Shown here piece by piece: positions 1 through 8,934 of a DNA stretch of 64,000 nt. Origin of the DNA: Candidatus Zixiibacteriota bacterium. GTDB taxonomy: Bacteria; Zixibacteria; MSB-5A5; GN15; FEB-12. The stretch is from positions 16,449 through 80,448 of the forward strand of contig JBFMGC010000001.1 of assembly GCA_040752815.1 (NCBI GenBank), read 5' to 3'. Numbering within the stretch: position 1 is the stretch's first letter; every line of letters begins with the position of its first letter. The position numbers and the translations under genes were made by a program. A model generated the notes under the pieces. The model had not been told where the DNA came from, did not search any database, and saw only the letters and a list, made by a program, of their open reading frames with translations.

Positions 1-1498
1 CGGTGCGCCAGACTTCGTCGGCCTCACCCTCGCGCAGATCGTTCCTCAGTTTAGCGACCTGGAAACATTCCTGGGCCTGACGGCGGTTGGCCAGTTCCAC
101 CTGGCGTAGCTGTTCTGCTTCGAGTGCGCCAATGAACGCCGATGTCACCGCCAGTTCGAGCGCCAGAGCGGCCCTCTTTTGATCCGCCTCCGTACGGTCG
201 CGCTCCAGCCCGGCGGAGCGGATGTCTCGGATAGCCCCGAGCGATAAAATCTCCTGCCGCAGGCTCAGTCGGGCGTGGTAGCGGTTGTTTTCGTAGCGGG
301 GATCGTTGTTGACGGCGTTGTCATCGAAGTAACCAGCTGAGCCGCTGAGCTCCAGTTGCGGAAGATAGACCGACCGCGCCTCAGAATAGGCCGCCTCGGC
401 AGCGTCAAGACTGGCCAGAGTCGCCTGCAAATCCGGATTCTGCGCCAGAGCCACGCCGACCGCGTCGACAACGCTCAGCCGCTCGACACTGTCCGGCGCG
501 GGGGCATCGATGAGCGACACGTCATACCGACGGTCGGTAGACAAAGCGATTCGCAATTCGCGCATCATCTGGGAGTTGAGAGCTAGGCCGCGGGCATCGG
601 CGTAGACGTTCGGCAGGTCGGCCGGAATGACTCCGCCGATGATTCGTACCGCCTTCACCGCTTGATAGTGGGCCTCCACCAGGGGAGTCTCGACCGAACC
701 GCCCGCCAGGGCGCCACGGGTTACCTGGTATTCGCCCTCGCTGCAGAAGACCGGAATCCGGTCGCGCCCGACCATGGCGTGAAACTGGCGCATCCGGTCG
801 CTCTCGCAACCCCACATTGGCGGCAGATAAAGGGCATCAATACTCTTATTCAACTGACGATACGCCTTAAAGAAAGCGTAGGCGCTGTCTACGTCGTACC
901 CCTCCGCCGTGACAATCTCGAAACCGATCCGCCTGCCCAGCACGCGCATGCTGTCGATTACAGTCGGCGCTTCGCTCCCCGATGGGAAATAGAGCACGCC
1001 TATGGTGTCGGCCCGCACTAATTCGGTCAGGTATGCGAAGTCGGACTCTATTTTGCGCGGGCGAATCCGGACTGAGAGATTGTTCACAATCGAGCGGCCG
1101 TTTTGGTCGACCAGTCCTTCCAATACCGGATCGAAACGAAGCGCCGCCAGAATCGGCTTGTCGAATCCAGCTGCGAGCAAATCCTCGACTGTCCACGGCC
1201 CAGTGGCCACCACCAGATCGACATCCTGCGCACCGGCCAGTTCCCTGGCCATGACCCGCGACTGAGCGCGTTTCCACTCAGCAGATTTGTAACCGTCGGT
1301 GGGGTAATTGATCGTCACACCGGCTGGACACAACGCCTCCACCTGCTCGCGAAAATGGTTGCGGAATTCGGAGTGGGCCGGATACGGGCCGCCCTCGAAA
1401 AAGCCGATTCCGAAGGTGCGAGTTCCGCCCCTGGTTAGGGATACCAAGCTGAGAAGAAGCGTTATACAGGCTACTAAACCGACATTTCTATACAACAT
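1..1498 (-). CDS. TolC/OEP-family outer-membrane efflux protein with N-terminal ABC-type substrate-binding-like domain; C-terminus runs off the window
   Basis: Hand translation of the reverse strand from ATG 1498-1496. It gives MLYRNVGLVACITLLLSLVSL (signal), then an SBP-like region (DLVVATGPWTVEDLL..IPVFCSEGEYQVTRGALAGG), then LSVVDAVGVALAQNPDLQATLASLDAAEAAYSEARSVYLPQLELSGSAGY, a typical TolC repeat start. The frame is open to position 1. It is absent from the ORF track because it has no in-window stop. Confidence 0.6.
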   Translation of the reverse strand, partial: MLYRNVGLVACITLLLSLVSLTRGGTRTFGIGFFEGGPYPAHSEFRNHFREQVEALCPAGVTINYPTDGYKSAEWKRAQSRVMARELAGAQDVDLVVATGPWTVEDLLAAGFDKPILAALRFDPVLEGLVDQNGRSIVNNLSVRIRPRKIESDFAYLTELVRADTIGVLYFPSGSEAPTVIDSMRVLGRRIGFEIVTAEGYDVDSAYAFFKAYRQLNKSIDALYLPPMWGCESDRMRQFHAMVGRDRIPVFCSEGEYQVTRGALAGGSVETPLVEAHYQAVKAVRIIGGVIPADLPNVYADARGLALNSQMMRELRIALSTDRRYDVSLIDAPAPDSVERLSVVDAVGVALAQNPDLQATLASLDAAEAAYSEARSVYLPQLELSGSAGYFDDNAVNNDPRYENNRYHARLSLRQEILSLGAIRDIRSAGLERDRTEADQKRAALALELAVTSAFIGALEAEQLRQVELANRRQAQECFQVAKLRNDLREGEADEVWRT

Positions 1499-1733: not shown

Positions 1734-1761
1734 TTGACAAAGCTCCGCCGGTCGATAAATT
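1734..1761 (+). promoter_or_regulatory. Candidate sigma70-type promoter for the ABC-exporter leader
   Basis: TTGACA (1734-1739), a 16-nt spacer, then TAAATT (1756-1761). It lies in the divergent intergenic region about 70 nt upstream of the leader ORF. Confidence 0.35.
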
Positions 1762-1832
1762 GCCGGTCAGCATATTCGCCCTTGAAAAGACTTTACGTAT
1801 ATTAAACCCGCTGCCAAGGAGTCGACGAACTA

Positions 1833-1907
1833 ATGATTAAACTCCGGTATCTCTTGTCGGGTGCACCGGTATGCACCCGGTGTGGCGGGACAGGTGTGCC
1901 TGGATAG
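1833..1907 (+). CDS. Candidate 24-codon leader peptide (MIKLRYLLSGAPVCTRCGGTGVPG)
   Basis: AAGGAG at 1816-1821 lies 11 nt before ATG 1833; the stop is TAG 1905-1907. The ORF lies inside alternative RNA pairings immediately upstream of an intrinsic terminator. It is below the size cut-off of the ORF track. Confidence 0.35.
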   Translation: MIKLRYLLSGAPVCTRCGGTGVPG

Positions 1908-1929
1908 GGCCTGTAACCAGAAGATCACG

Positions 1930-1968
1930 AAGCCCGCCACGGTCGCACCGATCCTGGCGGGCTTTTTT
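1930..1968 (+). terminator. Intrinsic terminator in the 5' leader of the ABC operon
   Basis: Stem AAGCCCGCCA (1930-1939) pairs with TGGCGGGCTT (1955-1964) around a 15-nt loop, followed by a run of six T (1963-1968). Confidence 0.75.
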
Positions 1969-2021
1969 CATTGTCCCCTGGGGTCATTCACTCGGCAATG
2001 TTCGAAACTTGGGGCAATGAA

Positions 2022-3821
2022 ATGACAAGTGCACTATACGACGACGAGAAATCATCAATACCCGATAAGGACCTCGGCATCCGCAAGGCGTTCGGCCATC
2101 TGGTACCGTACCTGCAGTGCCACCGGAAGCGCCTGGCGATCTGCCTGGGTTTGTTGGTTTCGGCTACCCTTCTTTCACTGGCCTGGCCAATACTGCTCAA
2201 AGAGGCAATCGACTCACCGCTCGCAGGCGGAAACTACCGGGGTCTGCTTTACCTGGCGGCCGGTATTGCCGCGATCCAGATTGTCAACATCGGCGCGCAA
2301 TACGTGCTTCGGGTACGCCTGGAGACGATCGCGCAGGATATCATGCTGGATTTGAAGCGGCGCCTGTTCGCCCATATCTTGTCGCTCGATCTGTCGTTCT
2401 ACGATCAGAATCCGGTGGGCCGGCTGATGGCGCGCGTGGAGTCAGATACCGAGTCGCTGCGCATGTTGTTTACCAACACCGTGCTATTGGTGCTGGCCGA
2501 CATGCTCCTTGTGACCGGGCTGTACGGCGTGTTGTCTTACTACAACTGGCGGATGGCGTCGCTCCTGGCGGCGCTCATTCCGGCAATCGGGCTGCTCGTT
2601 TGGATCTTCCATCGCCTGACCTCACACCGCTTCCTGGCGGTGCGTAAACTGATGGCCGAGGTAACGGCCACCGCGACCGAGTTTTTGCAGGGGATGTCGA
2701 TCATCCAGATCTTCCACCGCGGCGAATACGCCCGACGGAGGTTCTACCGGGCCAACGAGGCCAAGTTTCACGAGGATGCCTTTGTCAACGTGGCGGTCTG
2801 CGTCTTTTTCAACTCCGCTTTCATCTTCGAGTACGTGAAGATCGGCCTGGTGCTGCTGCTCGGTGCGCAACTCGGGCTGACACCCGGCCTGATGGTGCTG
2901 TTTCTCGTCAATATCTGGCGGTCATTCGACCCGATTTTCCGCATGTCGGAACAGTTGGCCAGCTTCCAGAAAGGAGTGGCCGGCGCAAGACGTATTTTCG
3001 CGCTCCTGGAAACCAAACCGAAACTGCTGGACTCGCCCAAACCGGTCGACTGGCCCGGTCTGCGGTCGAAGATACGCTTCGAAAACGTCTGGTTCTCCTA
3101 CGGCGATGATCGCGAGTGGGTGCTCAAGGATGTCAGTTTCGAAGTCAGGGCCGGCCAGCGGGTAGCGCTGGCGGGTGTCACCGGAGGTGGAAAATCGACT
3201 GTCATCGGACTGCTCCTGCGCTTCTATGATTCGCAAAGGGGTCGGATCACGGTCGACGGAATCGACATCCGCGATATCTGCATGGCGGAGCTTCGCCGCC
3301 GATTCGCCCTGGTGCTGCAGGATATCGTGCTCTTCCCCGGCGATGTGAGCGGCAATATAGGCCTCGAAGCCGAGGAGATACCTGCCGAGCGAATCGTAAA
3401 CGCCGCGCGCACGGTGGCGGCCGACAGGTTCATCGAGCGGCTGCCGCATCAGTATCAGACCGAGGTATCGGAGAAGGGCGCCAACTTCAGCCGGGGCGAG
3501 AGGCAACTGCTGTCATTTGCGCGGGCGCTGGCTTTCGACCCGGAGGTACTGGTGCTTGACGAAGCCACCAGCTCGGTCGACCCGGAAACGGAGCGGGCAA
3601 TCCAGGAGTCGCTGCACAAGCTTATGGCAGGGCGCACATCGCTGGTGATCGCCCACCGCCTGACGACCATTCTGGATGTGGATCAGATTCTGGTGATTCG
3701 CCACGGTGAGATAATCGAGCGCGGCGCGCACACGGAGTTGATCATGCAGAACGGTTACTACACCAAGCTCTTCCACCTGCAGTACAAGAACATGAACGGA
3801 GCGACCGCCTATGTTAAGTAA
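2022..3821 (+). CDS. ABC exporter, fused permease/ATPase, half of a heterodimer (carries the non-canonical signature motif)
   Basis: Type I exporter TMD plus NBD: Walker A GVTGGGKST, signature replaced by FSRGERQ, Walker B LVLDEATSSVD, H-loop IAHRL. The ORF opens at 1971 directly after the terminator, so ATG 2022 (or 1998) is preferred. Confidence 0.9.
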   Translation: MTSALYDDEKSSIPDKDLGIRKAFGHLVPYLQCHRKRLAICLGLLVSATLLSLAWPILLKEAIDSPLAGGNYRGLLYLAAGIAAIQIVNIGAQYVLRVRLETIAQDIMLDLKRRLFAHILSLDLSFYDQNPVGRLMARVESDTESLRMLFTNTVLLVLADMLLVTGLYGVLSYYNWRMASLLAALIPAIGLLVWIFHRLTSHRFLAVRKLMAEVTATATEFLQGMSIIQIFHRGEYARRRFYRANEAKFHEDAFVNVAVCVFFNSAFIFEYVKIGLVLLLGAQLGLTPGLMVLFLVNIWRSFDPIFRMSEQLASFQKGVAGARRIFALLETKPKLLDSPKPVDWPGLRSKIRFENVWFSYGDDREWVLKDVSFEVRAGQRVALAGVTGGGKSTVIGLLLRFYDSQRGRITVDGIDIRDICMAELRRRFALVLQDIVLFPGDVSGNIGLEAEEIPAERIVNAARTVAADRFIERLPHQYQTEVSEKGANFSRGERQLLSFARALAFDPEVLVLDEATSSVDPETERAIQESLHKLMAGRTSLVIAHRLTTILDVDQILVIRHGEIIERGAHTELIMQNGYYTKLFHLQYKNMNGATAYVK

Positions 3822-5604
3822 GATAAGATGGCTGTGGAAATACTACCGCCGGCACCCGTACGTGCTGAGCGTGCTCGTGTTCCTGACCCCGGTACAGGCG
3901 ATGATTAGTGTCACCGTGCCGCAATTGTTCGGCTTTGCGGTCGATCATCTCACTACCGGTAACGTCTCCGACCATTTCGTGGCGCGCTGGGTGATCGGCT
4001 GGGGCGACGCGTTCGGCCTGACGCCCGCCTCGGCGTTCGGTGTCGCCTTTATCGCGCTGGGCGCGTTTTCGTGCGCGTTTTACGCTTTCGTGCAGTCACA
4101 TCGGGCCTGGATGAACACCAAGCTGGAATGGGAATTCCGGCAGGATGCGTTCAACCAGATCACTACCAAGGGACCGGACTTCTTCAATAAGTTCCGGACG
4201 GGTGACATTGTCACTCGCCTGACCGACGATGTCGCCGAAAAGCTCTCCTGGTTCGCCTGCTCCGGTATCTTCCGCCTGTATGAGGCGCTGCTGTATGTGA
4301 TCGTCATCACCGTAATGATGCTCAGTCTCGACCCGTGGCTCACCCTCTGGGCGGCCGCGCCGCTGCCGATTCTTGTGTTCATCTTTTTCCGGAGCTCGTC
4401 GGCGCTGGACAAACGGTACGATCATCTGCAGACGCGGATATCAAAGTTCAACGATGTCATGGAGGCCTGCTTTTCCGGGGTCAGAGTGGTCAAGGCGTAC
4501 GTACGCGAGAACGCCCAGAAGAAGAAATTCGAGCAGGCGGCGCTTGAACGCCGCAAAGCCGAACTGGGCGCGGTGCGACTGACCGCGGTGATCGAATCGA
4601 TGTACCAGTATCTCTGGCAGATTGCGCTTGTCACGGTGTTGGTGATCGGCGGCTACAAAGTGATCTCCTCGGGTCTGTCGGTGGGTGCACTGGCCGCGTT
4701 CATCTACTATGTGGCCTGGCTGGTCTACCCGATGTTTGATATCGGCCAGTTCCTGGTCAAGTCGCGGCAGTCGGCAGTATCGATCGACCGCCTGAAGGCG
4801 ATGGAAGATGTCCCACCACTCGTGACCGATCTCGGTGCAGCGGTCACGGATTCGCAGCCGCACGGCGACATTGCCTTCGAGGGTGTCACCCTCACTTTCC
4901 CCGGATCAGACCGGTGCGTGCTCGATGAAGTCACGATGACGATCGGCGCGGGCCAGAAGATCGCTCTGGTGGGAAGGGTCGGCGCGGGCAAGAGCTGGCT
5001 GATCAATCAGATTCCGCGTCTGGTCGATCCCACCGGGGGTAACATCAAGCTCGACGGGAAGGAACTGCGCCAATTCCGACTGGAAGACCTGCGCCGTGCT
5101 ATCGGCTATGTCCCGCAGGAGCCGGTGCTGTTCAGCGACACGATCCGCAATAACATCCTGCTCGGCCGCGACGAAATCGCCGAGCCGGTGATTGAGTGGG
5201 CAATTGATGTGGCCCAGTTGAAAGACGAAATCGCCGCCTTCCCGCAGGGCCTGGACACGACAGTCGGCACGCGCGGCATGATGCTCTCCGGCGGTCAGAA
5301 ACAGCGGCTCGGCCTGGCACGGGCGCTGGTCGGCAAGCCGAAGATCCTGATACTGGATGATTGCACGTCGGCGCTGGACTCTCGCACCGAGGCAGCACTG
5401 TGGGACAGGCTGCATCAGGTGATGCCCGGCCTGACCGCCATCCTGATTACGCACCGCCCCGGCACACTGGCGCTGGTCGACCGGGTGTTCGTGCTTGACG
5501 ACGGCCGTATAGTTGAATCCGGCACCCACCATGAACTCATCAACCGCGCCGGACAGTACGCCAAGATTTACCGACGGTATCAGTTGGCGGAAGAGGTGGG
5601 GTAA
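3811..5604 (+). CDS. ABC exporter, fused permease/ATPase, second half of the heterodimer (degenerate Walker B)
   Basis: Walker A GRVGAGKSW, canonical signature LSGGQKQR, Walker B ILILDD with Asp in place of the catalytic Glu, H-loop ITHRP. It overlaps the upstream gene by 11 nt. Confidence 0.9.
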   Translation: MLSKIRWLWKYYRRHPYVLSVLVFLTPVQAMISVTVPQLFGFAVDHLTTGNVSDHFVARWVIGWGDAFGLTPASAFGVAFIALGAFSCAFYAFVQSHRAWMNTKLEWEFRQDAFNQITTKGPDFFNKFRTGDIVTRLTDDVAEKLSWFACSGIFRLYEALLYVIVITVMMLSLDPWLTLWAAAPLPILVFIFFRSSSALDKRYDHLQTRISKFNDVMEACFSGVRVVKAYVRENAQKKKFEQAALERRKAELGAVRLTAVIESMYQYLWQIALVTVLVIGGYKVISSGLSVGALAAFIYYVAWLVYPMFDIGQFLVKSRQSAVSIDRLKAMEDVPPLVTDLGAAVTDSQPHGDIAFEGVTLTFPGSDRCVLDEVTMTIGAGQKIALVGRVGAGKSWLINQIPRLVDPTGGNIKLDGKELRQFRLEDLRRAIGYVPQEPVLFSDTIRNNILLGRDEIAEPVIEWAIDVAQLKDEIAAFPQGLDTTVGTRGMMLSGGQKQRLGLARALVGKPKILILDDCTSALDSRTEAALWDRLHQVMPGLTAILITHRPGTLALVDRVFVLDDGRIVESGTHHELINRAGQYAKIYRRYQLAEEVG

Positions 5605-8865: not shown

Positions 8866-8906
8866 CCCCAAAAAACAACGGGGACAGCGCGTAAACGCTG
8901 TCCCCG
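8866..8906 (-). terminator. Intrinsic terminator after the cohesin-like/T9SS gene
   Basis: An 11-bp stem CGGGGACAGCG/CGCTGTCCCCG (8879-8889 / 8896-8906) with a 6-nt loop. On the minus strand it is followed by TTGTTTTTTGGGG. Confidence 0.8.
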
Positions 8907-8934
8907 TAGGTATCGGCAGAACGGGCCGGTTCGT

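Follow-up and report, generated by a model that had tools for sequence, protein, structure and literature searches.

The leader of a two-gene operon that encodes a heterodimeric ATP-binding cassette (ABC) exporter was analyzed in a 64,000-nucleotide (nt) stretch of a Candidatus Zixiibacteriota metagenome-assembled genome (MAG). The whole stretch is referred to as the window, and coordinates are positions in it. Judged from its sequence and from those of its relatives, the 250-nt leader, which consists of four strands (regions 1–4), is probably a ribosome-mediated (leader-peptide) transcription attenuator gating the exporter operon. An intrinsic terminator was found between the promoter and the first gene, together with a conserved antiterminator that excludes it and an open reading frame (ORF) of conserved frame, which carries a ribosome-binding site and spans the strand that would act as the switch. 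The elements of the leader are as follows.

1734–1761, plus strand: sigma-70-type promoter from a consensus scan (TTGACA at 1734–1739, 16-nt spacer, TAAATT at 1756–1761).
1797–1815, plus strand: region 1, the 5' strand of the anti-antiterminator helix P1 in the minimum-free-energy fold (GUAUAUU at 1797–1803 and CCCGCUGC(C) at 1807–1815).
1816–1821, plus strand: Shine-Dalgarno site AAGGAG, read from the sequence, 11 nt before the leader ATG.
1833–1907, plus strand: leader ORF from the ORF list, with ATG at 1833 and 24 codons plus stop, encoding MIKLRYLLSGAPVCTRCGGTGVPG.
1858–1879, plus strand: hairpin P2, that is GGGTGCA/TGCACCC (1859–1878) as extended by RNAfold, inside the ORF (codons 9–16) and directly 5' of region 2.
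1881–1899, plus strand: region 2, the shared strand (codons 17–23), with (U)GUGGCGGG at 1881–1889 (codons 17–19) and the 3' part of P1 at 1893–1899.
1929–1968, plus strand: predicted intrinsic terminator, a hairpin at 1929–1965 (−26.7 kcal/mol, RNAfold) and then six T at 1963–1968.
1929–1945 (core 1932–1939), plus strand: region 3, the 5' arm of the terminator, from the folds.
1949–1965 (core 1955–1962), plus strand: region 4, the 3' arm of the terminator, from the folds.

Region 2 can pair alternatively with region 1 or with region 3. The sequence GTGGCGGG at 1882–1889 is exactly complementary to CCCGCCAC at 1933–1940, and the antiterminator formed by these strands (helix 2:3, 1881–1889 with 1933–1941, −18.9 kcal/mol) occupies seven of the eight bases of the core 5' arm of the terminator, so antiterminator and terminator are mutually exclusive. 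In the anti-antiterminator (helix 1:2, duplex energy −19.6 kcal/mol), CCCGCUGC at 1807–1814 and GUAUAUU at 1797–1803 pair with the GUGGCGGG strand and with 1893–1899, respectively, and this pairing is part of the minimum-free-energy fold. P1 (1797–1815 with 1881–1899) encloses the Shine-Dalgarno site and the ATG, as it does in most relatives (alignment-free duplex test, median z −1.96). The outer stem of the terminator (helix 3:4) has an energy of −21.6 kcal/mol, and the energies of the three alternative helices are balanced. Region 1 ends 1 nt before the Shine-Dalgarno site and holds a conserved motif, AACC(C)GC, in the relatives. The terminator begins about 25 nt past the leader stop codon, and both it and region 1 are thus outside the ORF. 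A simple pattern scan missed the terminator at 1929–1968 owing to its loop rule (3–8 nt) and an internal mismatch in the stem; the hairpin was detected by RNAfold. Hairpin P2 has an RNAfold energy of −15.1 kcal/mol (z −3.3).

An earlier, sequence-only reading of this region had listed the promoter, the AAGGAG site, the ORF with its inner hairpin, the complementary octamers, and the terminator, and had argued that antiterminator and terminator exclude each other and that the antiterminator strand lies within the translated leader. All of these elements were found where that reading had put them, and both structural arguments hold. Refolding with RNAfold recovered the two exclusive pairings and added the anti-antiterminator, which had been missed. 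In the window alone, the 2:3 complementarity is modestly above composition-matched chance (duplex z −1.8), so the case rests on the relatives.

Orthologs of the first exporter protein were collected from 41 of 41 related genomes and from 80 further public loci, and nearly all of the relatives fetched from public genomes are labelled as Candidatus Zixiibacteriota MAGs. After removal of duplicates, 83 non-redundant loci with at least 330 nt of upstream sequence were retained. A hairpin followed by a T-run, i.e. an intrinsic terminator, is present in 76 of these, with the T-run at a median of 63 nt before the ABC start codon. Every one of the 76 terminator-bearing loci has an ATG-initiated ORF (median 25 codons, range 20–39) over the segment that pairs best with the 5' arm of the terminator. 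Compared to shuffled leaders, the duplex between this ORF segment and the terminator arm has a median z of −3.55, and 86% of the 76 loci have a z below −2.

For covariation, a covariance model was built from 27 leaders and used to align 77. The model held only the 1:2 helix and the terminator; the 2:3 helix was not in it. Pairing in the alignment was as follows.

Antiterminator (2:3), not in the model: 90.7% of cells paired in 77 sequences, compensatory changes at six of nine pairs.
Terminator (3:4), in the model: 98.4% paired, compensatory changes at four of eight pairs.
Anti-antiterminator core (1:2), in the model: 69.5% paired in 77 sequences, compensatory changes at seven of eight pairs.
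Anti-antiterminator extension (1:2), in the model: 51.3% paired in 77 sequences, compensatory changes at seven of seven pairs.

When the partner strand of the antiterminator was slid by 1–3 columns, 39–59% of cells were paired, compared to the 90.7% observed. The antiterminator covariation score was reached by none of 500 shuffles, a figure that is inflated by relatedness, the slid controls being the safer comparison. Region 2 and the two arms of the terminator covary three ways: they read GTGGCGGG, CCCGCCAC, and TGGCGGG in the closest relatives, GCGGCGGG, CCCGCCGC, and CGGCGGG in most loci, and ACGACGGG, CCCGTCGT, and CGACGGG in locus L110. Both the ORF and the complementarity corresponding to 1882–1889 and 1933–1940 are therefore kept in the relatives, with compensatory changes. 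Long and clearly covarying anti-antiterminator helices were seen in several loci (L004, L013, L016, L017, and L044).

The reading frame of the leader is conserved as well. In the frame test, the first G of GGCGGG was taken as a fixed column, and the codon phase of any ORF with an ATG and a Shine-Dalgarno site running through this column was scored. Such an ORF was in phase 0 (GGC GGG) in 63 of 77 loci, compared to 1 and 10 loci for the other two phases, despite differences in the length and sequence of the N-terminal part. Of the 76 terminator-bearing loci, 69 have a Shine-Dalgarno core upstream of the leader ATG. Across all 76, region 2 starts at codon 18 (interquartile range 17–19), the stop codon is located 17–18 nt after region 2 in 39 of 76, and the terminator stem starts at a median of 25 nt past the stop codon. 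The third position of the first Gly codon is C or U in 70 of 76 loci and that of the second is G in 63 of 76; as these bases are demanded by pairing with CCCGCC and not by the synonymy of Gly codons, selection acts at the RNA level. The amino acids of the leader change where the terminator arm changes.

The TTGACA-16-TAAATT promoter matches 10 of 12 consensus positions and would place the transcription start near 1768. Two promoter-like sites of that quality were observed in the 800-nt region, where 0.4 were expected from shuffles. Of 77 relatives, 48 have a sigma-70-like promoter in the 100 nt that precede the leader, mostly with a constant spacing to it; after shuffling, the count falls to 6. 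The stretch of approximately 55 nt that separates the terminator from the ABC start codon contains such a promoter in only 3 of the 77. With a promoter upstream of the leader and almost none 3' of the terminator, the operon depends on read-through.

The covariance model matched 95 of 151 sampled genomes of the phylum, representing 10 of 19 families, nearly always with one match per genome. The element is single copy in the genome of the window, and the second matches seen in a few other genomes had E values of 0.005 or weaker. Every match that could be compared by coordinates, including seven of seven from other orders, adjoins the ABC ortholog directly on its 5' side. In four genomes checked from two families with no model match, there was no orthologous exporter, only a paralog of 35–39% identity.

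The two genes downstream of the leader are the following.

2022–3821, plus strand: ABC half-transporter 1, like TmrA, BmrD (YheH), and TM0288, with a consensus Walker B motif (LVLDEA) and a degenerate signature (FSRGERQ).
3811–5604, plus strand: ABC half-transporter 2, like TmrB, BmrC (YheI), and TM0287, with the Walker B motif ILILDD and a canonical signature (LSGGQKQ).

Among the best PDB sequence hits, proteins 1 and 2 match the two chains of solved heterodimeric exporters. The catalytic Glu is missing from protein 2 (ILILDD), and protein 1 has FSRGERQ where LSGGQ is expected; the other composite ATP site is canonical. By these motifs and matches, the operon is of the TmrAB/BmrCD/TM287-288 type, a heterodimeric ABC exporter with one degenerate ATP site. 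The genes overlap by 11 nt (the ATG of gene 2 is at 3811 and the stop codon of gene 1 at 3819–3821), and this overlap suggests translational coupling of the two halves.

The proposed mechanism is as follows. In the absence of a ribosome, region 1 would capture region 2 as soon as the latter emerges, long before region 3 has been transcribed; the terminator would then form from regions 3 and 4, and transcription would end near 1968 (OFF). Smooth translation would have the same outcome: the ribosome would cover region 2 or stand at the stop codon that separates regions 2 and 3, and the terminator could form. A ribosome stalled at the start codon or within about the first 11–12 codons would keep regions 1 and 2 apart and leave region 2 bare. 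Region 2 would then pair with region 3 as soon as the latter is made, the terminator would be blocked, and the polymerase would read into the ABC genes (ON). In folds of the RNA 3' of a masked ribosome, up to region 3, the 2:3 helix was obtained when the ribosome was at the AUG, codon 6, or codon 11. With the ribosome at the stop codon, the terminator was obtained.

By analogy with bmrCD and vmlR, translation inhibitors or other translation stress are the most likely signal, with about an even chance. It is unlikely, though conceivable, that the element is not an antibiotic sensor but a housekeeping sensor of ribosome stalling, present in single copy across much of a Zixibacteria class and feeding a TmrAB/TAP-like exporter. 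Such a sensor would couple initiation or early-elongation stress to the exporter, which might, for example, clear peptides arising from faulty translation. On this unlikely reading, the anti-antiterminator strand 5' of the Shine-Dalgarno site and the ORF running through the antiterminator would make it a two-input stall sensor, responsive to both initiation and elongation, a layout not described for bmrB or vmlR.

Several observations weigh against the attenuator. The anti-antiterminator is conserved less than the other helices, with the core paired in 69.5% and the extension in 51.3% of cells. The ribosome-free thermodynamic fold of the transcript through region 3 already favours the 2:3 helix, so the OFF default rests on the order of folding (kinetics), which was assumed and not computed. 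The peptide motif xRGG (or xRGGxG) is explained by RNA pairing and is uninformative about translation; its conservation was therefore rejected as evidence for the peptide. No conserved stalling motif was found in the N-terminal part of the peptide, and the macrolide-type +x+ arrest motif was rejected as a family feature, being present in only 18 of 76 loci. A hairpin at the position of 1858–1879 is seen in only about half of the relatives (median ΔG −6.0, z below −1 in 53%), and this inner hairpin was accordingly rejected as a conserved core element. Moreover, the host organism is uncultured.

Three other explanations of the leader were considered. It could be a structured RNA that acts independently of the ribosome, either a riboswitch or the target of an RNA-binding protein, with the ligand or protein stabilising or breaking P1 and the ORF being incidental. 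The conserved long-range helix, which encloses a second hairpin and is followed by a terminator, does have the outline of many riboswitch expression platforms. However, a permissive Rfam 15 scan of 1400–2200 (E up to 10), the check for a riboswitch that the sequence-only reading had proposed, gave no match, the best scores being 13–15 bits, far below the gathering thresholds and from unrelated families. An aptamer would show conserved junction bases, whereas the sequence enclosed by P1 is poorly conserved beyond the Shine-Dalgarno site, ATG(AT), and the helix strands. Nor would an incidental ORF be expected to stay open in one frame, starting at an ATG behind a Shine-Dalgarno site, in 63 of 77 loci (1 and 10 in the other frames) while its N-terminal part varies in length, or to hold its stop codon at a constant spacing from region 2 and the terminator. 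A ribosome-independent leader is thus considered very unlikely. The charged-tRNA alternative, in which the attenuator would sense a shortage of Asn- or Ile-tRNA, as amino-acid operon leaders do, instead of general or drug-induced stalling, draws on the composition of the peptides: relative to the ABC proteins, Asn is enriched 4.6-fold and Ile 1.85-fold before region 2, and of the 76 leaders, 28 have Ile as the second residue and 24 have Asn as the third. The Met-Ile-Asn or Met-Ile-Lys start of many leaders may equally reflect the need for A/T-rich, unstructured codons after the start codon, as the codons of Asn and Ile are A/T-rich and their enrichment is expected if the stretch must stay unstructured and initiate well. 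Furthermore, no run of codons for one amino acid is conserved at a fixed place among the relatives, which share only the general enrichment and have otherwise unrelated N-terminal sequences, and the regulated genes encode an exporter and not biosynthesis or aminoacylation functions. Sensing of tRNA charging is therefore regarded as quite unlikely.

The ORF could also be an independent small-protein gene with a terminator of its own, encoding, e.g., a substrate or partner of the exporter, with the ABC operon transcribed from a separate promoter. In favour of this, the mini-gene is conserved, with a good Shine-Dalgarno site in front and a strong terminator behind, and it is always adjacent to the exporter genes. 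Yet a sigma-70-like promoter was found in the gap of approximately 55 nt between the terminator and the ABC start codon in 3 of 77 relatives, and upstream of the leader in 48. Where the peptide is conserved, it is fixed at the RNA level, since its third codon positions obey the pairing rule, and its amino acids change as the terminator covaries; the rest of the peptide is not conserved. The leader peptide lacks a signal peptide and a double-glycine leader context and has no significant match to a Pfam family, and no C39 peptidase domain was found in the exporter. A small-protein gene also gives no reason for the conserved complementarity between the interior of the ORF and the terminator arm, and this explanation is highly improbable.

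In genome G041, which belongs to a third model-negative family of the same class, locus L112 has an ABC ortholog of 52% identity and, upstream of it (1180–1500), a promoter (TTGACA) followed by a 31-codon ORF with a Shine-Dalgarno site and then by a terminator. This leader was not detected by the model. Complementarity between its ORF and the terminator arm is limited to 6 bp (z −0.6), and the leader was therefore not counted as a family member; it may be an attenuator that has diverged or is wired differently. A few loci have no leader and carry a plain promoter. In one of them, L027 (genome G018, ortholog of 54% identity), there is no leader ORF and no terminator, and a TTGACA-type promoter lies close to the start codon; this lineage appears to have lost the attenuator. 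In six loci (L007, L008, L013, L017, L018, and L019), an extra small hairpin, TTGTGA-N5-7-TCACAA, was observed between the leader stop codon and the terminator. Its 5' arm holds the TGA stop codon of the leader, and the leaders often end in ...RRL. This hairpin is absent from the leader in the window.

Two of the closest known systems are leaders of Bacillus subtilis. In the bmrB leader, a 162-nt ORF contains the terminator, antiterminator, and anti-antiterminator, all inside the coding region (nt 60–162), and read-through into bmrCD rises when drugs that target the 50S subunit slow the ribosome, the inducers being chloramphenicol, erythromycin, and lincomycin (Reilman et al. 2014, PMC4191407). 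The present system is similar to bmrB-bmrCD in having a heterodimeric ABC exporter with one degenerate ATP site and a leader ORF, here putatively translated, with a terminator, an antiterminator, and an anti-antiterminator. Unlike bmrB (approximately 53 codons with the structures inside), the ORF has 24 codons (median 25 in the relatives), the terminator is found approximately 25 nt after the stop codon, and region 1 is 5' of the Shine-Dalgarno site. Compared to bmrCD, the two genes stand in the opposite order, with the BmrD-like gene first. The host belongs to Zixibacteria and not to Bacillota, and no homology between the leaders is evident. Membership in the bmrB leader family was rejected because of the layout. 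Of the BmrB/BmrCD-like attenuation that the sequence-only reading had proposed, the likely function and the gene type thus stand, but the layout does not.

In the vmlR leader of the same bacterium, a three-codon upstream ORF (uORF), Met-Ile-Asn, lies inside the anti-antiterminator hairpin (Takada et al. 2022, PMC9226507). When ribosomes are arrested at initiation on this uORF, the anti-antiterminator cannot form, and only initiation-arresting drugs are sensed; NusG-dependent pausing and a hairpin that sequesters the Shine-Dalgarno sequence are also present (PMC9226507). As in vmlR, the anti-antiterminator helix of the present leader encloses the start of the ORF and an intrinsic terminator follows, and a ribosome held at the start codon would free the antiterminator. 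Many of the leaders share the Met-Ile-Asn opening of vmlR, or have Met-Ile-Lys, which is a resemblance only. Unlike the vmlR uORF, the ORFs have 20–39 codons (24 in the window) and run through the antiterminator strand, so that elongation stalls could be sensed and full translation would enforce termination. The regulated genes are membrane ABC exporters, whereas vmlR encodes a soluble ABCF ribosome-protection factor.

Classical trp-type attenuators are built from the helices 1:2, 2:3, and 3:4. The present leader likewise has three mutually exclusive helices, a stop codon placed so that a terminating ribosome would prevent the 2:3 helix, and a terminator downstream of the ORF. Unlike in the trp type, region 1 is outside the ORF, 5' of the Shine-Dalgarno site, and does not carry the regulatory codons. 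It also differs from the trp, his, leu, and thr leaders in that it has no run of cognate amino-acid codons and the genes are not biosynthetic. The layout is closer to a hybrid of trp and vmlR.

Attenuation has also been described upstream of other ABC exporters. In Streptococcus pneumoniae, a leader with a terminator, an antiterminator, and an anti-antiterminator precedes patAB, which encodes a heterodimeric ABC multidrug exporter, and disruption of the terminator results in constitutive overexpression (Baylay and Piddock 2014, PMC4319486). The present leader has the same three structures before the same type of exporter. It differs in that no leader peptide is described for patAB, and the two leaders are unrelated in sequence and phylum. 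An attenuator has been documented for a multidrug export operon of a lactobacillus as well (PMC2965389). The sequence-only reading had expected this logic to be new in what looked like an FCB-type lineage. The lineage was guessed correctly, the host being a member of Zixibacteria, and no paper tying Zixibacteria to attenuators or leader peptides was found in the literature; the novelty does not extend to the principle, as attenuators before multidrug ABC exporters were already known (PMC4191407, PMC4319486, PMC2965389). By the comparisons made here, the leader represents a sequence family not described before; the kind of switch is well known, but none has been reported from this phylum.

The phylum thereby gains a well-supported cis-regulatory RNA. 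To our knowledge, Zixibacteria have no cultured member. Indirectly, the element is evidence that Zixibacteria use intrinsic terminators and initiate translation from Shine-Dalgarno sites, and that their transcription and translation are coupled tightly enough to permit attenuation. It also adds a Gram-negative case from the FCB superphylum to the pairing of attenuators with ABC exporters, for which experimental documentation has so far come from Bacillota. The covariance model could be used to annotate the element in metagenomes and to correct annotations in which the mini-gene is overlooked. Until the inducer has been identified, the practical value remains modest.

The leader is part of a divergent intergenic region (1499–2021), from which a TolC-like gene is read leftward from 1498 and the two ABC half-transporter genes rightward. 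The neighbouring gene is the following.

2–1498, minus strand: TolC-like gene, a fusion of a substrate-binding-like domain (PF04392) and a TolC/OEP domain.

A divergent arrangement of the TolC-like gene and the ABC operon was seen in no more than about ten of the relatives that had been fetched, most of which are closer ones, and the association is thus not general. Between its start (1498, minus strand) and the ABC promoter, there is a GC-rich hairpin, GCGCCTGGCGTACC...GGTGCGCCAGG, at 1627–1655 (about −26 kcal/mol), which may be part of the 5' leader of the minus-strand gene. A promoter-like site, TTGGCA-16-TAAAGT, was observed on the minus strand at 1790–1817, overlapping region 1 of the leader. 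It would leave the TolC-like gene with a 5' leader of approximately 285 nt and may also be a chance match. Elsewhere in the window, a textbook intrinsic terminator with a 13-bp stem followed by TGTTTTTTGG is located on the minus strand at 8878–8907, just upstream of the start of a kinase gene; canonical hairpin-plus-U terminators are therefore in use in the genome of the window.

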